A stretch of 24,000 nt of DNA from Candidatus Hermodarchaeota archaeon (GTDB lineage: Archaea; Asgardarchaeota; Lokiarchaeia; Sigyniarchaeales; SOKP01): contig JBHLLI010000050.1 of assembly GCA_048885765.1 (NCBI GenBank), positions 3,003 through 27,002 on the forward strand, given 5' to 3'. Below the pieces are notes generated by a model. That model was not told the DNA's origin, did no database searches, and saw only the letters and a list, made by a program, of their open reading frames with translations. This document shows, piece by piece, positions 3,736-20,912 of the stretch (its first letter is position 1; the number at the start of each line of letters is the position of its first letter). The position numbers and the translations under genes were made by a program.

Positions 3736-4344
3736 ATGTCTGTGCCTACAAATACTACTTCTGAGATCGATAGTAAAGAGAAACCAGCCTATATTTTTAA
3801 AATTACAATTTTAGGGCAGGAACGAGTAGGCAAAACTTGTATTGCTAGAAGATTATGTTTCAATACCTTTGATGTTAATACAAAAGAGACCTTGGGTATT
3901 GAATTTTATACAAAAGATATACCTATTGTTGTTGATGGTGATAATACATTTGTACGACTTAGTATATGGGATTTTGGTGGACGAGAACAATTCAAAAAGT
4001 TATTTCCATATTATATTAATGGTGCGAATGGAATTTTCATGGTCTTTGATCTGATAGATCTTCAAACATTATTAAGGTTAGACTGGTGGTATGACAGACT
4101 TTCAGAATATAATCACGCTCTTACGCCCAGAATGTGTATTGGAGCTAAGAATGATTTAGTGAAGACTGCTGATGAGAAATCTAAAGTGGATGATTTAGTA
4201 ATTAAAAGATTCATGGAAAGACATGATGAAAACGATTTTTTTAAAACTTCTTCAAAAGAAAATTGTAATATTGATGTAATTTTTAAACAGCTCCTTATCA
4301 AAATACTGCAAAAAAATGCCCTAGATTTTGATCGAATACCATAA
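3736..4344 (+). CDS. Ras-superfamily (Rab/Ras-like) small GTPase
   Basis: G1 is GQERVGKT. Switch I is Rab-like (ETLGIEF). G3 is WDFGGRE. G4 is GAKNDL. G5 is TSSKE. At 202 aa it has no C-terminal prenylation Cys. Confidence 0.85.
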   Translation: MSVPTNTTSEIDSKEKPAYIFKITILGQERVGKTCIARRLCFNTFDVNTKETLGIEFYTKDIPIVVDGDNTFVRLSIWDFGGREQFKKLFPYYINGANGIFMVFDLIDLQTLLRLDWWYDRLSEYNHALTPRMCIGAKNDLVKTADEKSKVDDLVIKRFMERHDENDFFKTSSKENCNIDVIFKQLLIKILQKNALDFDRIP

Positions 4345-6260: not shown

Positions 6261-9188
6261 ATGAGCTATACGTTTTCAAGAACAAAAATGATTGAAAAAA
6301 TTAAATTTGGGCTTCTAAGTCCTGATGAGATCCGCAAAATGTCAGCAGCTAGAATAATTACTGCTGATACATATGATGAGGATGGGTTACCTATACCCTC
6401 TGGATTAATGGATCAACGATTGGGTACTATAGAACCAGGCCAGCGTTGTCAAACATGTGGTAACCTTGTAAGTAATTGTATGGGCCATTTTGGTCATATT
6501 GAGCTCGCTAGACCTGTTATTCATGTAGGTTATGCAAAGAAGGTCTTAAAAGTATTACGAAGCATTTGTCCTGAATGTTCTCGTTTAATGCTTACGGAGG
6601 ATGAAAAAGAAAAGTTTAGGGAAGAACAAATTAAACATCGAAAAATCTTCTTTGAAGGAGATGAAGATGCAGCAAAAATTGTTTTTAAACGAGCAAGAAA
6701 GGCAAAAACTTGTCCCTACTGCGAAGCTAAAAAGAAGAAAATTATTATTGAAAAACCTACAACATTCTATGAAGAAGAAGAAGGAAAAGGTTCACGAAGA
6801 ATAACTCCTATAGAGATTTTAGAACGTTTAAAAAAGATGAGTGATGTTGATCTTAGAATTCTTGGTATTTCTCCGGAGAACGCTCGTCTTGAATGGGTTG
6901 TTTTTACAGTTTTACCAATACCTCCTGTGTGTGCTAGACCATCTATTACTTTAGATAGTGGTATTCGCTCTGAAGATGATTTAACACATAAATTAGTTGA
7001 TGTTATTAGGATTAATCAAAGATTAAGAGAAAATATTGACGCAGGAGCACCTCATTTAATAGTTGAAGACCTTTGGGAATTATTACAATACCATATTACT
7101 ACTTATTTTGATAATCAAGTATCTGGTATACCTCCAGCTAGACATCGATCTGGTAGAGCACTTAGAACTTTAACTCAGAGATTGAAAGGTAAGGAAGGTA
7201 GGTTTAGGAGTAATTTAAGTGGTAAAAGAGTTGATTTTTCGGCTCGTAGTGTAATTTCTCCAAATCCTTATATAAGCATTAATGAGGTAGGTGTTCCTAT
7301 AGAAATAGCCAAAATATTAACAATTCCCACTAATGTTAATGATTGGAATATTGAAGAAATGAAACAGATGGTATTAAATGGCCCATTTAAACATCCTGGA
7401 GCTAATTATATTATTCGGAATGATCGTAGAAGGATCGACCTAAGATATGTTAAAAATAGAAAAATTATTGCGGATATGCTCGCACCTGGGTTCACAATTG
7501 AGCGCCATTTAAATAATGGTGATTTGGTATTATTTAATCGTCAACCTTCTCTTCATAGGATGTCTATAATGGCTCACGAAGTAAAAATAATGAAAGGAAG
7601 AACTTTTCGCTTAAATTTAACAGTGTGTCCACCATATAATGCCGATTTTGATGGAGATGAAATGAACTTGCACGTACCGCAATCTGAAGAAGCTCGGACG
7701 GAAGCGGAATTACTTCTAAAAGTTCAAGAACATATATTATCTCCTAGATTTGGTGGTCCGATTTTAGGTGGTATTCAAGATTTTATATCAAGTGTTTTTC
7801 AATTTACAAGTAAAGACTCTCTTTATACTAAAAAGGATACATTGAAATTATTGTATAATGGAGATGTTTTCAAAAACAATCCTAATTTCAATTTGGACAA
7901 CCTAACTCCTGTTGTTGTTGATCCAGTACCTATGTATTCTGGTAAGGATATATTTAGTACCTTATTTCCAGATGATCTTAATATAAAAGTGAAATCTAAA
8001 TTTTGTAAAAAATGTGAAGTATGTGAAGAAGAAAATTGTTCATATGATGCGTATGTAGTAATTAAAAATGGACATTTAATAACGGGTACAATCGATGAAA
8101 ATTCTTTCGGTGCTATGCAATCAAATAGTATTTTACAAAGAATTATCAAAGATCATGGTAATGCAACAGGTAGAAGATTTTTAGACAGTGCAACAAAAAT
8201 GCTTTTATATGTTATTAGACAGAATGGAATGACTATGGGATTGGATGAGGTTTATGTTCATGGAGATGCATATGAAGCTATTCAAAAAATACTAGAGGAA
8301 GCAAATGAAGAATCTCAAAAGTTAATAAATGCCTTTTATGATAATGATACTAAAATCCTTAGAAGGGCACCTGGGCGTTCTATGAGAGAAACATTAGAAT
8401 TAAGAATCCGGCAAGTATTAGCAGAGGCTAGAAATAAAGGTAATGAAACTGCAGCGGAATTCATTGGAGATGAAGCTCATTCTGTTATTATGACTAAATC
8501 TGGTGCCCGAGGAAATATACTAAATTTAGGTCAGATGTCTGCGCTTGTAGGTCAACAAGCAATTAGAGGAGAGAGAATTAATAGAGGATATAGTATGAGA
8601 ACCCTTCCTCACTTTAAAATTAATGATCTCTCACCTAAATCAAGAGGATTTGTTTCTTCTTCATATAGAAATGGATTAAAACCAGTGGAGTTCTTCTTTC
8701 ACGCAATGGGTGGGCGAGAAGGATTAGTCGACACAGCAGTAAGAACTTCCACATCTGGATATATGCAACGTAGGTTGGTGAATGCTTTACAGGATATGGT
8801 GGTCGAAAATGATGGTACTGTGAGAAACTCTGATAAAAATGTTATTCAATTCTGCTTTGGAGATGATGGAATTGATGCAATGCATACTGATCATGGTGCT
8901 GCGGTAAATCTTGATGTCTTATTACTGAAAGCTAAAGCTCTAAATGTTGATGAAGTACGCGAAGAGATTAAAAAGGGGTCTTCATCAAAAAAACCTGAAC
9001 CTAAGAAAAAAATAGATACTGAGAAAGAACCAATAAAAGAAGTTTCTACTGTGCCAAAACCAACTGAGAAAGAAATGGATGAAGAATCATTAAAACAAAA
9101 ATTTGAGCAAGAAACAGGGAAAAAAGCAATTTGGCGTGGTAAAGAAACCAGCGCATATTTAGATTGGAAAGAAGAACAAAATAAATAA
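6261..9188 (+). CDS. rpoA1: DNA-directed RNA polymerase subunit A' (Rpo1N)
   Basis: N-terminal zinc motifs are present (CQTCGN...C-x-GHFGHIEL; CPECSRL). The catalytic motif is NADFDGDEMNLH. The ORF is collinear with archaeal A'/Rpb1 N-terminal two thirds. An AGAGGT Shine-Dalgarno-like motif lies 10 nt upstream of the ATG. Confidence 0.97.
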   Translation: MSYTFSRTKMIEKIKFGLLSPDEIRKMSAARIITADTYDEDGLPIPSGLMDQRLGTIEPGQRCQTCGNLVSNCMGHFGHIELARPVIHVGYAKKVLKVLRSICPECSRLMLTEDEKEKFREEQIKHRKIFFEGDEDAAKIVFKRARKAKTCPYCEAKKKKIIIEKPTTFYEEEEGKGSRRITPIEILERLKKMSDVDLRILGISPENARLEWVVFTVLPIPPVCARPSITLDSGIRSEDDLTHKLVDVIRINQRLRENIDAGAPHLIVEDLWELLQYHITTYFDNQVSGIPPARHRSGRALRTLTQRLKGKEGRFRSNLSGKRVDFSARSVISPNPYISINEVGVPIEIAKILTIPTNVNDWNIEEMKQMVLNGPFKHPGANYIIRNDRRRIDLRYVKNRKIIADMLAPGFTIERHLNNGDLVLFNRQPSLHRMSIMAHEVKIMKGRTFRLNLTVCPPYNADFDGDEMNLHVPQSEEARTEAELLLKVQEHILSPRFGGPILGGIQDFISSVFQFTSKDSLYTKKDTLKLLYNGDVFKNNPNFNLDNLTPVVVDPVPMYSGKDIFSTLFPDDLNIKVKSKFCKKCEVCEEENCSYDAYVVIKNGHLITGTIDENSFGAMQSNSILQRIIKDHGNATGRRFLDSATKMLLYVIRQNGMTMGLDEVYVHGDAYEAIQKILEEANEESQKLINAFYDNDTKILRRAPGRSMRETLELRIRQVLAEARNKGNETAAEFIGDEAHSVIMTKSGARGNILNLGQMSALVGQQAIRGERINRGYSMRTLPHFKINDLSPKSRGFVSSSYRNGLKPVEFFFHAMGGREGLVDTAVRTSTSGYMQRRLVNALQDMVVENDGTVRNSDKNVIQFCFGDDGIDAMHTDHGAAVNLDVLLLKAKALNVDEVREEIKKGSSSKKPEPKKKIDTEKEPIKEVSTVPKPTEKEMDEESLKQKFEQETGKKAIWRGKETSAYLDWKEEQNK

Positions 9189-14918: not shown

Positions 14919-15234
14919 TATTTGTTTTCACTTCTTTTATACAAATTTATAAAATAATTTTTATAAATAGGTGAATAACTCAATGAAATATAACAAAGAA
15001 GGAGTCCAATTTTTAAATGCCAAATAATAAATCTAAACAAATTATGAAAAATAACTTTCTTATAAATGAATATAATCGAGCCATTGCTTCTTTCTTTTAT
15101 TTAGAAGTTTAATATCACCTGCGTATTATCCTTGTTCCCCAATCTTAAAGAAAAATTCTAAATTTTTATATATTTAAAAGATATAATATTTACTCAAACA
15201 GAATTAACAAATTAGAACAGGGTTATTATATAAA

Positions 15235-17202
15235 TTGGATGCCGACAAAAATCATAATCTCTTAGAAAAGCAACTAAAAACCTTAGGTCAGAAGATTAGG
15301 ATTGACATTCTAAAAAAATTGAAAACTAATCAGACTCCCTTGTCATTTTCAGGAATACAAAAAGAAGTATTAGGGAATGATCTTTCAACTGTGAATTTGT
15401 CTTTTCATTTAAACACTCTAAAGAAAAGTGAGTTAATAGATTCTTCTGAGGAGGGATATTCCATCACAATTTTGGGAGAGAAAATTATAGATAAGATCTT
15501 ATCAATTGAACAGATCCTAAATCAGCAAAATCAAACCAAAATGATCAGAACCTCAAAATATTCTAAAGAATTATTTGATACAACTAAAATTGAAAAATAT
15601 CTAGTTACAGAGGGTGAATTGGAGCATTTTTTAGCTAAGCAAATTGCTCGTGAAGTGGAAGAACGTCTTTCTAAGACAAATATAGAATATTTGACTGCTC
15701 CGTTAATGCGAGAATATATTAATGCTGTTTTATTAGAAAAAGGTCTAGAAGAAATAAGACATAAATTAACAAGATTAGGAACCCCTCCTTTTGAAGTGAC
15801 TAAGTTGTTTGAAAGCAGAAGAAGACAAATCAACCCTAGAATCTTTATTGAAAAGTTAGGTTCTGATGTATCTGAGCAATATTTACTACTTAATCTTATC
15901 CCTAAAAATTTAGCTGATTTATATTTATCTGGAGAAATAGCTCTTTTACATTTGAATTATTGGGCTTTGAGACCTTTAAGTCTTTATATCGATACAGAAG
16001 GAATTATGGATTATTTTTATAATGAGAATATCAACTTAAAAAATAATGGAAACAAGGAATTAAATAATACAGAATTGGTTATTCAATTTACTGATCTTTT
16101 ATATTGTTTGAAACAATTTTACTCCGAAGACTTAGTCTTAGGAAATTTTAACACTCAATTCCTTTCTGCCATTTCATTACCTAAAACAGATTCTTCTGAA
16201 TTGCTATTTTTAACCTCCCAAATTGCTAGATTCAATAATAGTTTTAATAAGACAAAATCATCTCTTACATTGGAGTTTAATAATAGAAGTTCAACAAATC
16301 AGCATCTCATTGACGAGGCTTTTTTTCTCTCTTTAACAAAAAGGTGTAAAGGCTTAATTAAACCACTATTTTTATTTGAGTATTCAAATTTATATCCTTC
16401 AGATTCTCAAAATAATAATATTCAACAATTAATATTAAGTAATTTTAGAAATAATGCTATTTTGTATAGTAAATCAATCTCAAATGTGTTTAATTCATCA
16501 TTAATACCAATATCAAATTTCCAAACAAGTCAGGTAATATTAGATAAAATATTGATCAACCTACATAGCATATCTATAGAAGCTAGGCAGAATGATGAAA
16601 AATTTTTAGAGTTATTACAAGAAAAATTATCATCCGTTTTTAAATTGTATGATTATAAAGAAAAACTAGTGCAGAAGAAATTAAATTCACTTAAACAATG
16701 GGATTTCATAGTTTCGAGTATTTTGAAAGGAAACAGGAATTATATATTAAAAGAAGCTCTGAAATCGATTAGTTTTTTCGGTCTTAATGAAGCTGTATTA
16801 CACCATTGTGGTATTGAACTTGATAGAACAGAAAGTAGTGAATCTTTTGCTTTAAAAATACTTACTTTGATGAAACAGATTATAAGTGAAAAAAATAACT
16901 CAAATGGAAATAAATTTGTGTTAAGCCAACCTCATTATGATTCTTACTTAGAGGACTCATGGCATAATGGAAAACCAGCTCTCAACCAGACTTCAGGTCA
17001 TTATACCCCAACTTTAATAAAAGATGATTGCAGTCTTTCTTTTGACAAAAAAATTCATTTGTTTAAGAAATTTCAGAGTATTTTAGACCGAGGGGCATTG
17101 TTTACCTTAAATATAAGTGAAAATGAAAGGAATATATTAAAAACTCTAAAAAATATAATTCAATGCGAGATAAGTGCTATATCATTAAAAAAGAATAATT
17201 AA
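15235..17202 (+). CDS. Fusion protein: ArsR-type winged helix-turn-helix + ATP-cone + degenerate class III ribonucleotide reductase (NrdD-like) core lacking catalytic Cys and glycyl-radical domain
   Basis: TTG start; the frame opens at 15208 and the first in-frame ATG is at 15541. The wHTH part is LGQKIRIDILKKL...LSFSGIQKEV...VNLSFHLNTLKKSELI...GYSIT. The ATP-cone-like part is MIRTSKYSKELFDTTKIEKYL...REYINAVLLEKG. The rest is collinear with NrdD blocks as recalled from memory (see findings). Confidence 0.7.
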   Translation: MDADKNHNLLEKQLKTLGQKIRIDILKKLKTNQTPLSFSGIQKEVLGNDLSTVNLSFHLNTLKKSELIDSSEEGYSITILGEKIIDKILSIEQILNQQNQTKMIRTSKYSKELFDTTKIEKYLVTEGELEHFLAKQIAREVEERLSKTNIEYLTAPLMREYINAVLLEKGLEEIRHKLTRLGTPPFEVTKLFESRRRQINPRIFIEKLGSDVSEQYLLLNLIPKNLADLYLSGEIALLHLNYWALRPLSLYIDTEGIMDYFYNENINLKNNGNKELNNTELVIQFTDLLYCLKQFYSEDLVLGNFNTQFLSAISLPKTDSSELLFLTSQIARFNNSFNKTKSSLTLEFNNRSSTNQHLIDEAFFLSLTKRCKGLIKPLFLFEYSNLYPSDSQNNNIQQLILSNFRNNAILYSKSISNVFNSSLIPISNFQTSQVILDKILINLHSISIEARQNDEKFLELLQEKLSSVFKLYDYKEKLVQKKLNSLKQWDFIVSSILKGNRNYILKEALKSISFFGLNEAVLHHCGIELDRTESSESFALKILTLMKQIISEKNNSNGNKFVLSQPHYDSYLEDSWHNGKPALNQTSGHYTPTLIKDDCSLSFDKKIHLFKKFQSILDRGALFTLNISENERNILKTLKNIIQCEISAISLKKNN

Positions 17203-18116
17203 TTTGTCATTAATTCAGCCAAGAGAGCTTTTCTCATAGGGATTCCATAATAAGTTTGCTTAAAATAAATGGCTTTTTCTGAGTTATCAACATCTGGAGA
17301 GATTTCTGTGATTCTTGGAAGAGGATGCAATAATCTAAAATTATCTTTTGTATCGTTAAGATCATCTTTTCGAAAAATATAAATGTCCTTAATCTTTTCA
17401 TATTCCTCCAAATCAGCAAACCTTTCCTTTTGTATCCGGGTCATATAAAGAACATCTAAAATATTAAGAATTTTCCTGTAATTTGTAATTTCCTTATATT
17501 TAACATGCCGCTGTTGCAGAAAATCTTTGTCTCGATTTCTCATCCTCAATTCTATAGGACTAATAAAATAAATATTTATATCAAAATTTGACAAAAGAAT
17601 TGAAAGCGAATGAACAGTTCTTCCATATTTGAGATCACCCATTAAACCAATATTTAATCCATCTAAAGTACCAATTTCCTCAGTAATCGTTAATAGATCT
17701 AATAAAGCTTGAGTCGGATGTTCTCCACTTCCTGATCCTGCATTAATAATAGGGACTTTAGAAAATTTTGATGCCATTCGTGCTGCCCCCTCAAGCGAAT
17801 GCCTCATAACTATACAATCACTATAGTTTTCTACTGTTCTTATCGTATCTGCAATGCTTTCACCTTTTTTTATAGAAGAAACATCTCCGGAATGAAATCC
17901 AATCACACTTCCACCTAATCTATACATGGCAGATTCAAAACTAAGACGAGTTCGAGTAGATGGCTCAAAAAATAGTGTTGCTAATATTTTTCCATTGAGA
18001 AGATTTGAATTCTTTATATTAATCATTTCTTTTCCTTTTTTCAATATATATTCAATATCTTCTCTATCAAATTGCTTAGCACTAATTACTCCTTCGCTAA
18101 ATTTCTCTTTAAACAT
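17199..18116 (-). CDS. pyrB: Aspartate carbamoyltransferase catalytic subunit
   Basis: Carbamoyl-phosphate site FFEPSTRTRLSFE is present, along with HPTQALLD, the MGDLKYGRTVHS pattern and HPLPR. Length of 305 aa is typical. Confidence 0.95.
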   Translation of the reverse strand: MFKEKFSEGVISAKQFDREDIEYILKKGKEMINIKNSNLLNGKILATLFFEPSTRTRLSFESAMYRLGGSVIGFHSGDVSSIKKGESIADTIRTVENYSDCIVMRHSLEGAARMASKFSKVPIINAGSGSGEHPTQALLDLLTITEEIGTLDGLNIGLMGDLKYGRTVHSLSILLSNFDINIYFISPIELRMRNRDKDFLQQRHVKYKEITNYRKILNILDVLYMTRIQKERFADLEEYEKIKDIYIFRKDDLNDTKDNFRLLHPLPRITEISPDVDNSEKAIYFKQTYYGIPMRKALLAELMTN

Positions 18117-19340: not shown

Positions 19341-19688
19341 TTATTCAATTTTGCCAGTTTTAACCCAACCTGAATTATCAGTTGCTACAATATTTTGTAT
19401 TTTTACCTTAGGATTAATGTATTTGATTCCTATTTTGCGAAATCGTTCTAAAACTATATCAAATGCTAATTGAACATCACTCTTCTTTTTTAAGCCAGTT
19501 AAGACCATTTTACCAGTAGAAAATATTAATATAGTAGCATGTGGTTTTTCTATGTACATTACAAGTCCTGGAAAACGTTCTGGGTTATACTCAGTATTAA
19601 CATAATTATTGGCGAGCTTGTTTAAATCTATCTTCTCTGTAATTTCAATTATTCCAATCCCAACAATATTTTCTATTTTATCGGTCAA
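19341..19688 (-). CDS. TATA-box-binding-protein homolog containing only one TBP repeat (truncated or single-domain TBP)
   Basis: IENIVGIG...IDLNKLA...EYNPERFPGLVMYIEKPHATILIFSTGKMVLTGLKK...A...RFRKIGI corresponds to TBP repeat 1. The second repeat starts (KVKIQNIVAT) and the ORF then ends 12 codons later. TTG start with GGAG 13 nt upstream. Only 23 bp separate its stop from the convergent GNAT gene. Confidence 0.7.
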   Translation of the reverse strand: MTDKIENIVGIGIIEITEKIDLNKLANNYVNTEYNPERFPGLVMYIEKPHATILIFSTGKMVLTGLKKKSDVQLAFDIVLERFRKIGIKYINPKVKIQNIVATDNSGWVKTGKIE

Positions 19689-20300: not shown

Positions 20301-20912
20301 TCATACTAAATTACTAATAATTTTTATAAAATTGTCCTTATATTGTATCTCTATATTATTTTCCTCTAAATATTTAACAATTCTCTCTTTAATGATATAT
20401 CCATTTTTAAAATCCAAAAAATTTTTTCCAATGAACTCTGGTAAGTATTTTCTTTCTAAAACAATTTCATTTGAACCCCTAGTTTTCATTAAAGAATGAA
20501 TCTTGCTTACTATCTCAGAATAGATGCTCCGACCTCGAACTTTTAACCTTCTAGGATGCCTTTTTCCTTTAAAACTCTTGATCTTTTTCATTCTATCGAT
20601 ATCTCTTCTTTTTATTATCTCCAATTTATTTGTAATAATATGATGATCTTCACCCGTGTGTAAATCTTTTAATCGATTTACCATCCAATTAGGTATACCA
20701 TTCTCTATGGGATTCGATATTATATTATCAATTCTAGCTAATTGTTCTTCAGAGAGATCTCCTATCCTGAGATTAGGATTTAATTCTGCTGTTTTAACAA
20801 TCGCTTGAGCTAATCTCATATCAACTCCTTTTATTTGAGTCAATCCAAAGATAACTTTACTATTAGAGTCAATTATAGCTCGAGCTCTCCGTAAAAATTT
20901 CATCTTAATCAT
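20301..20912 (-). CDS. Divergent ribosomal protein S13 (uS13)-like protein with a non-canonical ~75-aa C-terminal domain
   Basis: Residues 5-128 (LTQIKGVDMRLAQAIVKTAELNPNLRIGDLSEEQLARIDNII...GIPNWMVNRLKDLHTGEDHHIITNKLEIIKRRDIDRMKKIKSFKGKRH...LKVRGRS) are collinear with archaeal S13. Residues 129-203 are not basic and are unlike the S13 tail. The gene is not in the usual S13-S4-S11-rpoD cluster. Confidence 0.7.
   Translation of the reverse strand: MIKMKFLRRARAIIDSNSKVIFGLTQIKGVDMRLAQAIVKTAELNPNLRIGDLSEEQLARIDNIISNPIENGIPNWMVNRLKDLHTGEDHHIITNKLEIIKRRDIDRMKKIKSFKGKRHPRRLKVRGRSIYSEIVSKIHSLMKTRGSNEIVLERKYLPEFIGKNFLDFKNGYIIKERIVKYLEENNIEIQYKDNFIKIISNLV

Follow-up and report, generated by a model that had tools for sequence, protein, structure and literature searches.

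Can the scaffold of an anaerobic ribonucleotide reductase (RNR) become a DNA-binding regulator once its chemistry is gone? The question is raised by an open reading frame (ORF) at positions 15235..17202 of a 24,000-nucleotide stretch of contig JBHLLI010000050.1 from a Candidatus Hermodarchaeota archaeon (the whole stretch that was analysed, called the window below). The original prediction, made from the letters of the DNA, read the product as a winged helix, an ATP-cone and a catalytically dead NrdD (class III RNR), and proposed that it regulates transcription in response to nucleotides. The peptide strings quoted in that prediction were all found in the translation of the ORF. The domain searches, alignments and structure model described below indicate that the 655-residue protein is a catalytically inactive paralogue of archaeal NrdD, built from the following parts.

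15235..17202, + strand: complete ORF with a TTG start, 655 residues, winged helix-turn-helix (wHTH), RTS-type ATP-cone and a catalytically dead, cut-off NrdD barrel
15274..15519, + strand: ArsR/DUF7347-type wHTH, residues 14-95 (Pfam, NCBIfam, AlphaFold2)
15541..15789, + strand: divergent "RTS-type" ATP-cone, residues 103-185, the most conserved part of the family (Pfam, hhalign)
15820..17199, + strand: NrdD-like alpha/beta barrel without catalytic elements, residues 196-655, ending on the last barrel strand (Pfam, TIGR02487, Foldseek)
15940..15951, + strand: degenerate HxHD motif, A236-L237-L238-H239 (alignment with P. copri, S. thermophilus and methanococcal-type NrdD)
16492..16536, + strand: site of the deleted finger loop, residues 420-434, NSSLIPISNFQTSQV (MAFFT alignment against real NrdDs with MGCR or CC loops)

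Domain architecture and catalytic residues

The relationship to NrdD was assessed by sequence profiles and by fold. Pfam placed NRDD (PF13597) on residues 440-565, equivalent to profile positions 283-412 of 562, with an E-value of 1.3e-14 (54.2 bits; cut-off 26.2), and the NCBIfam NrdD equivalog TIGR02487 scored 47.2 bits against a trusted cut-off of 326.35. An AlphaFold2 model of the window protein was built on 26 family members (mean predicted local distance difference test score (pLDDT) 74; predicted template modelling score 0.65) and searched with Foldseek against the PDB. Ranks 1-35 were all class III RNR chains (best E-value 1e-17; template modelling score about 0.5), with the NrdD matches coming from S. 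thermophilus, P. copri, T. maritima and phage T4. Because all 35 top matches are class III RNRs, the predicted NrdD homology is real and extends across the barrel, beyond the Pfam segment. The fold search was needed to establish it: the family profile gave only a weak match to P. copri NrdD among PDB sequences, and the sole match of a direct PDB sequence search with the window protein, an RNase III, was rejected as spurious.

Catalytic positions were read from alignments with genuine NrdDs (the methanococcal-type P0242, HMMER-aligned fragments of the S. thermophilus, T. maritima and P. copri proteins, and a Bathyarchaeial NrdD), and the roles of residues were taken from the structural paper on P. 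copri NrdD (PMC11226230). The finger loop, whose thiyl-radical Cys lies in an MGCR or MCCR motif (PMC9669993), is deleted in the MAFFT alignment, and no Cys occurs in residues 420-434 of the protein. The HxHD motif, which binds the substrate triphosphate (PMC11226230), is degenerate; the position of the beta-A Cys is taken by S249/L250; the NxN flap is absent from the protein as aligned with real NrdDs; and the loop 2 region, RGGxQ in real NrdDs, is replaced. The protein lacks the zinc ribbon and the glycyl-radical motif (RxxGY), ending on its last barrel strand (…ISAISL) at the point where real NrdDs begin the zinc ribbon and the RxxGY loop, and its orthologues end at the same place. A frameshift cannot hide a C-terminal glycyl-radical domain, because the convergent pyrB gene overlaps the stop of the ORF by 4 nt. 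No radical-SAM protein that could serve as an NrdG activase was found within the 24-kb window. The loss of catalytic elements, the truncation and the absence of an activase gene nearby thus all stand as predicted. The sole invariant Cys of the family is C525 (nt 16807-16809), in NHCGIELDR, a position at which the real NrdDs compared have Val or Thr (YHVG in P0242; WHTG in the NrdD of the Bathyarchaeia-type locus L086).

For the wHTH, DUF7347 (PF24038) matched residues 14-88 with an E-value of 6e-10 (39.7 bits; cut-off 27.6), accompanied by weaker Pfam matches to HTH_45, HTH_20 and HTH_5 and by a match to an NCBIfam ArsR/SmtB metalloregulator subfamily (1.9e-5) that is below the NCBIfam cut-off. 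In the AlphaFold2 model the domain has the secondary structure H-H-H-E-E, a helix-turn-helix followed by a wing, with a pLDDT of about 73-86. The domain is strongly conserved across the 650-residue family, and the canonical ArsR-like recognition helix (VNLSFHLNTLKK in the window protein) is conserved across the clade.

Translation of the wHTH hinges on the start codon, since an alternative start at ATG 15541 (Met103) would exclude the domain. Across 84 orthologous loci (L001-L084), the MxxDKN N-terminus of the long form is kept and begins with GTG (40 loci), TTG (27) or ATG (9), so that GTG or TTG is used in 67 of the 84. Together with an in-frame stop 27 nt 5' of the TTG, this conserved start argues that the wHTH is translated, as the original prediction had assumed, and disfavours the internal ATG. 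A non-ATG start is the norm of the family and fits a protein of low abundance. The leader also carries the following element, which is seen in many orthologous leaders and whose function is inferred.

15218..15223, + strand: CAGGGT, possible Shine-Dalgarno-like element, 11 nt before the TTG

For the cone, the Pfam ATP-cone model (PF03477) matched residues 103-174 with an E-value of 0.0064 (17.4 bits), under its cut-off of 25.8; relatives with the same cone type match it with E-values down to 7.7e-10. When an RTS-cone profile was set against one of canonical cones in hhalign, the probability was 95.9% (E-value 6e-9), which indicates that the RTS-type cone is a true homologue of the ATP-cone. 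The predicted three-part architecture therefore holds, with NRDD and DUF7347 above their cut-offs and the ATP-cone identified by profile-profile comparison. The same cone type (VRTS+…F…KI) is the inner or sole cone of some genuine archaeal NrdDs.

In the cone of P. copri NrdD (PcNrdD), Lys7-Arg8 contact phosphates (PMC11226230). Alignment to PcNrdD places these two residues on the invariant Thr106-Ser107 of the family, with an invariant Arg105 just before them; the canonical phosphate-binding Lys-Arg pair is thus not retained in the window protein. R175, H176 and R180, in the region of the cone's last helix, are invariant in the family; the last helix itself lies outside the alignment. As the sole cone of some genuine archaeal NrdDs, the RTS-type cone may still be a functional site, of a different kind. 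At the position of the phosphate-binding loop, TPAE in real NrdDs, the family has an invariant SQPH, which would leave room for a retained ligand site. The claim that the protein keeps its allosteric nucleotide-binding parts is not supported: the Lys-Arg pair has become Thr106-Ser107, and loop 2, the relay of the specificity site, is variable even within the family. Nucleotide sensing is speculative for these two reasons and is the weakest link of the proposal that the protein is a regulator.

The Asgard family, its gene order and its promoter

To what extent is this protein conserved, and where is it encoded? Protein searches returned at least 478 close homologues with a length of about 650-665 residues. 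The best 120 of these (496-671 residues, mostly 650-665) share one Pfam architecture and belong to the Asgard lineages Promethearchaeota/Lokiarchaeia, Thor-, Hermod-, Hod- and Odinarchaeota; among the matches listed, one entry from a Hermodarchaeota metagenome-assembled genome (MAG) is 100% identical to the window protein. In a scan of one genome per GTDB species, 109 genomes encode the gene. Family members are 51-72% identical overall. The N-terminal 250 residues (winged helix, cone and residues 200-250) are near-invariant, and residues 255-430 of the barrel are poorly conserved.

Gene order is maintained in 83/84 loci as rpoA'-rpoA''-L30e-NusA-S12-S7-gene-><-pyrB-L44e-S27e, followed by TFS, PCNA, primase and GINS. 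In roughly half of them the gene comes straight after S7, with both on one strand, and optional DZR and acyltransferase genes may stand between S7 and the gene on the opposite strand. A convergent pyrB lies within 1.5 kb (≤1.5 kb) of the gene in 83/84 loci.

17199..18116, - strand: pyrB, aspartate carbamoyltransferase catalytic chain, convergent (Pfam OTCace_N and OTCace)

The overlap of the ORF's stop with pyrB was correctly predicted; pyrB is not a downstream operon partner, being on the opposite strand, tail to tail. In the window pyrB is solitary, with no adjoining pyrI; the Bathyarchaeia-type loci L086, L089 and L090 have divergent pyrB/pyrI pairs. L004 (12014-15067) is among the few loci in which the gene-pyrB pair is broken up, by IS605/TnpB-type elements next to pyrB: a TnpB fragment separates the gene from pyrB, and a full OrfB lies beyond pyrB. 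Locus L063 (DATKTW010000033.1) has the full Asgard gene order (rpoA…S7-gene-pyrB-L44e) under the label "Candidatus Nanopelagicaceae bacterium"; the contig is probably Asgard DNA that was mis-binned or mislabelled.

Across about 80 Asgard species, conservation of the 200 bp before the gene is striking, whichever gene lies upstream. Alignment of 80 distinct upstream regions defined three blocks.

15112..15135, + strand: Box1, candidate operator; family consensus ATATCACCYACATATTATCTAAAT, window ATATCACCTGCGTATTATCCTTGT (upstream alignment, position weight matrix)
15151..15176, + strand: core promoter resembling a TFB recognition element (BRE) and TATA box, consensus AAAATTCCTAAATTTTTATATAATTG (a conserved block; archaeal BRE/TATA inferred from sequence and position)
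15183..15213, + strand: Box2, candidate operator at the transcription start region, between TATA and the start codon; consensus ATATTATTTAGTTAAGCAGAATTAAAGAAAT

Box1 and Box2 have a common ATATTAT core and flank the TTTTTATATA TATA box, in the region from about -125 to -25 relative to the start codon (L001-L084). Position weight matrices (PWMs) of both boxes were scanned over the window and 1.46 Mb of orthologous loci (84 loci), with a threshold of >10 bits for Box1. Box1 was present in the gene's own promoter in 83/84 loci, and elsewhere in the 1.46 Mb only 7 matches exceeded 10 bits, two of which belong to a duplicated promoter module; Box2 matched the own promoter in 73/84 loci and almost nothing else. 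The duplicated module, a second full Box1…Box2, lies 2.8 kb upstream of the gene in L028 (about 7196-7297) and L029 (about 7194-7295), beyond the inserted acyltransferase and DZR genes, which suggests that this insertion duplicated the promoter.

The leader is evidently conserved at the DNA level, because it has no Rfam match and no conserved RNA structure: neither a consensus structure nor covariation was predicted for it, and the reading as an RNA element was rejected on these grounds. A scan for sigma-70 promoters and terminators was uninformative for an archaeon. Box1 and Box2 would be the candidate sites for DNA binding by the wHTH. The promoter looks as an autoregulated one would, and its form is equally compatible with control by another factor.

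Several other genes of the window are described here for completeness. A 115-residue ORF (19341-19688, - strand) has a single repeat of the TATA-binding protein (Pfam TBP; E-value 3e-25) and is present in few orthologous loci; ordinary archaeal TBPs have two repeats. A 202-residue small GTPase of the Ras/Roc/Arf family (3736-4344, + strand) adjoins a Metallophos gene and lies ahead of the RNA polymerase genes; small GTPases of this type count among the eukaryote-like signature proteins of the Asgard archaea. A 203-residue homologue of ribosomal protein S13 (20301-20912, - strand) matches Pfam only over residues 13-128 and has a C-terminal extension of about 75 residues beyond this match.

The wider clade of winged-helix NrdD-like proteins

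Is the architecture confined to this family? The original prediction knew of no archaeal equivalent and suggested a survey across archaea. A search of 1.84 billion cluster representatives found wHTH-cone-NrdD-like proteins in Asgard and several other archaeal lineages, and with thousands of relatives the protein is not unique to this genome. The next relatives beyond the 650-residue family are proteins of about 700-850 residues with 31-38% identity to residues 10-310 and the architecture DUF7347 wHTH, ATP-cone, full-length NRDD and zinc ribbon (the ~750-residue relatives below). Within Asgard they are encoded by Jord-, Frey-, Njord-, Atabey- and Helarchaeia, and beyond it by Bathyarchaeia, Methanomethylicota and MAGs labelled Nitrososphaerales and Conexivisphaerales. 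More than 2,600 proteins match at E≤1e-5. The nearest genuine NrdDs are methanogen-type enzymes with an outer canonical and an inner RTS-type cone, or with an RTS-type cone alone.

Catalytic positions were tabulated for 120 members of the wider clade. None has Gly plus Tyr/Phe at the radical site (0/120), where SRVSAKxLP is commonest, and none has the beta-A Cys (0/120), so the whole wHTH clade is non-catalytic. Asn replaces the Asp of HxHD in 99/120 members, and the finger-loop Cys (ATGCRF) is kept in roughly half. The family of the window, with finger loop and C-terminal domain deleted, is on this evidence the most reduced branch of the clade. The wHTH, which occupies the place of the outer ATP-cone in related genuine archaeal NrdDs, must be older than the truncation, because the ~750-residue relatives with a zinc ribbon carry the same wHTH; it was not gained together with the truncation, as had been supposed.

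Genomic context was compiled for 86 wider-clade loci from metagenomes and assemblies, 61 of which were informative in having enough downstream DNA. The gene for the NrdD-like protein (pseudo-NrdD) is followed by a glutaredoxin-like gene (grx; optional) and an NrdD gene in 33/61 of these, and by a directly convergent pyrB, the arrangement of the window, in 13/61; neither arrangement is found in 13/61. In three Bathyarchaeia-type contigs the order is the gene, a glutaredoxin-like gene on the same strand, a second NRDD gene, convergent pyrB and pyrI. The second NRDD protein of L086 has an ENANL flap, HIHDLEY, the beta-A Cys, a CYQCCAY finger loop, a zinc ribbon and SRVTGYY, and by these motifs it has every hallmark of a genuine enzyme. 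The arrangement of the window looks like the ancestral cluster minus grx-nrdD.

In the Bathyarchaeia-type loci the intergenic region before grx-nrdD holds a conserved module, TGTCAATTT … TTATACAGAATTTTAWACAAT … TTTAAGTA, which includes TGTCAATTT...TTATACAGAATTTTATACAAT. The core of this module, ACA[GC][AT]ATTTTA[AT]A, has 21 matches in 860 kb, all on the coding strand between pseudo-NrdD and grx-nrdD (L086 10560-10600, L088 9480-9520, L089 9260-9300 and 18 more loci). The pseudo-NrdD encoded upstream would be the obvious candidate regulator at this module. About eight other Bathyarchaeia-type loci have a related motif in the opposite orientation. The 7-mer CAGAATT is common to the Loki-type Box2 and the Bathyarchaeial nrdD promoter motif; this sharing was judged consistent with a chance match (roughly estimated at 0.05), the two subfamilies also have different recognition helices, and it was not used as evidence. 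Sequences resembling tRNA (GGGGCTGCCCGGATTCGAACCGG…) lie just upstream of pseudo-NrdD in L088 (about 6770-6870), L089 (about 6565-6640) and L090 (about 6650-6730), apparently on the opposite strand.

Proposed function, rival readings and known systems

What, then, does the protein do? The reading we favour, at about even probability, is that an NrdD paralogue has been converted into a DNA-binding regulator that is dimeric, modulated by a ligand, and in control of its own promoter and of nucleotide-metabolism genes. The protein would dimerise via its NrdD scaffold, and the two winged helices of the dimer would bind DNA. Its own promoter, with Box1 and Box2 around the TATA box, would be a likely target, and promoters of deoxyribonucleotide or nucleotide metabolism probable ones. 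A small ligand, plausibly a nucleotide, would modulate binding through the cone or through the SQPH remnant of the barrel's phosphate loop. The predicted regulation of nucleotide metabolism is plausible as far as regulation goes, and relatives encoded directly upstream of grx-nrdD strengthen it; it is the nucleotide-sensing part that has lost ground.

Several observations weigh against this reading. The cone has Thr106-Ser107 in place of the Lys-Arg phosphate clamp, and loop 2 is not conserved. The Loki-type loci contain no real RNR gene in the 10 kb around the gene. In the same +/-10 kb, the Box PWMs identified no operator shared with another promoter: there were no convincing Box1/Box2 sites, including at pyrB/L44e, and no second promoter with the boxes in the 1.46 Mb scanned, so that no regulon emerged. 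Conservation of the N-terminal 250 residues is unusually high for a specific transcription factor, and that of the neighbourhood could reflect a frozen ancestral gene order instead of function. Winged helices can also mediate protein contacts, and DNA binding is here a prediction.

A broader form of the proposal, which we hold tentatively and at somewhat below even probability, is that the window protein and its ~750-residue relatives are ancient, widespread master regulators of deoxyribonucleotide supply in TACK and Asgard archaea. The inactive NrdD dimer would read nucleotide pools via vestigial cone or phosphate-binding sites and would use its ArsR-type winged helices to regulate nrdD, its own gene and possibly genes of pyrimidine biosynthesis.

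The main rival, which we consider unlikely, is a pseudoenzyme that does not bind DNA and acts as an allosteric or scaffold partner of NrdD (in a heterodimer) or of aspartate carbamoyltransferase, with the wHTH used for protein contacts. Because NrdD is an obligate dimer whose monomers influence each other (PMC11226230), an inactive paralogue could associate with an active copy, and pseudo-NrdD and real NrdD genes stand in tandem in the 33/61 loci described above. The almost invariant adjacency of pyrB, the missing pyrI beside it in the window, and the very high conservation of residues 100-250, which fits a conserved protein interface, point the same way. Against these stand the canonical ArsR-like recognition helix of the N-terminal domain, conserved across the clade; the persistence of the Loki-type family without an adjacent nrdD; and the convergent orientation of pyrB, which is therefore not co-transcribed.

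It is improbable that the protein is a general chromatin-associated or transcription/replication-associated Asgard factor, recruited from NrdD and not specific to nucleotides. Such a role would suit the surroundings of RNA polymerase, NusA, S12-S7…L44e-S27e-TFS-PCNA-primase-GINS in 83/84 loci, the position directly after S7 in about half of them, and an N-terminal half conserved almost like informational proteins. The gene has its own conserved promoter, however, and in the wider clade it adjoins nrdD and pyrBI or mevalonate-pathway genes, not RNA polymerase or ribosomal genes; the gene order of the region is generally frozen, which makes position weak evidence.

We likewise see only a slim chance that the barrel gained a new, non-radical catalytic or ligand-processing activity, which would make the protein a bifunctional enzyme-regulator. 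The family-invariant polar barrel residues (D437, K438, N442, D454, H524, C525, E528, R531, E552, N554, Q565 and H567) and the conserved SQPH at the phosphate-binding loop favour it. Several such residues, e.g. H524 and G526, are present in real NrdDs and may be structural, residues 255-430 are poorly conserved, and none of the motifs specific to the family looks like a known active site.

That the protein is a genuine anaerobic ribonucleoside-triphosphate reductase, the name given in public records and one to which the matches to Pfam NRDD and TIGR02487 might point, has next to no probability and is refuted as far as sequence can show, given a TIGR02487 score of 47 bits against a trusted cut-off of 326, the absence of finger-loop Cys, beta-A Cys, HxHD, NxN flap, zinc ribbon and glycyl-radical domain, the lack of space for a C-terminal domain and the lack of a nearby activase. 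A decaying pseudogene or nrdD relic, to which the lost catalytic parts and the reduced length might point, is refuted by conservation and is practically negligible: the ORF is intact, of constant length, present in at least 109 species genomes, under strong purifying conservation and behind a conserved promoter.

The clade is apparently undescribed, mis-annotated as RNR and genomically tied to nrdD and pyrB. In the literature searched we found no description of a wHTH-cone-pseudo-NrdD family and no RNR catalytic subunit in the role of a transcription regulator, and a survey of RNR insertions and extensions does not mention winged-helix fusions. The "nrdD" attachment site in Promethearchaeota of a Tn7 preprint cannot be tied to the family of the window. 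In public records the family and its >2,600 relatives bear the Prokaryotic Genome Annotation Pipeline (PGAP) name "anaerobic ribonucleoside-triphosphate reductase", and metabolic reconstructions of Asgard archaea, Bathyarchaeia and related archaea that count them as RNR are wrong and may falsely infer anaerobic synthesis of deoxyribonucleoside triphosphates. If the broader form of the proposal is true, thousands of such entries would be transcription factors. Bacterial NrdR is reported only in some archaea, and a DNA-binding pseudo-RNR beside nrdD would be a concrete candidate for the regulator of archaeal RNR genes. Real NrdD, the wHTH-NrdD-like proteins that lack the radical Gly-Tyr (some of them still with the finger-loop Cys) and a truncated protein that has lost the loop form a series, a clean case of an enzyme turned step by step into a pseudoenzyme, in the lineage closest to eukaryotes.

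Compared with archaeal and methanogen NrdD, the window protein shows homology throughout the inner ATP-cone, linker and ten-stranded barrel, has the motifs YLTAPLxRE, TRLGxP, NLxxI(A/S)xEA and GLxEA in common with it, and is located by pyrB as is real nrdD in the Bathyarchaeia loci. It differs in having no finger-loop Cys, beta-A Cys, HxHD, NxN, conserved loop 2, zinc ribbon or glycyl-radical domain, and in carrying an N-terminal wHTH where methanogen-type relatives have the outer cone; it cannot be a radical enzyme. With its ~750-residue relatives it shares the N-terminal architecture, the RTS-type cone, the missing Gly-Tyr radical site and beta-A Cys, and the adjacency of pyrB. Those relatives, unlike the window protein, keep the finger loop (often with its Cys), the zinc ribbon and a degenerate C-terminal domain, and are often encoded directly upstream of a real grx-nrdD, whereas the family of the window has no adjacent nrdD.

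The wHTH signature and predicted fold are those of ArsR/SmtB regulators (HTH_5, HTH_20, DUF7347). These are metal sensors of about 100-120 residues, whereas here the wHTH heads a 655-residue multidomain protein without an evident metal site. In concept the protein resembles PyrR, BirA, PutA and TrmB-type sensors, in which an enzyme fold is reused as a sensor or regulator joined to a DNA- or RNA-binding function.

A possible functional parallel is NrdR, the bacterial repressor of RNR genes, a type also reported in "some archaea" (PMC9110341). The window protein has no match to NrdR models in NCBIfam or Pfam scans and is not a member of that family; it would be an analogue at most. NrdR, a protein of about 150 residues with a canonical ATP-cone, has a zinc ribbon where the window protein has a wHTH, and the cone here lacks Lys-Arg and is attached to a 460-residue NrdD barrel. 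In the Loki-type loci, which have no RNR gene within reach, the related boxes on either side of the gene's own TATA box recall the paired NrdR boxes upstream of RNR operons; in the Bathyarchaeia-type loci a unique conserved motif, a candidate binding site, marks the grx-nrdD promoter. In both cases a DNA-binding domain is fused to an ATP-cone, and relatives of the window protein are linked to RNR genes; by this analogy, the protein would be an archaeal functional counterpart of bacterial NrdR, assembled from different parts.

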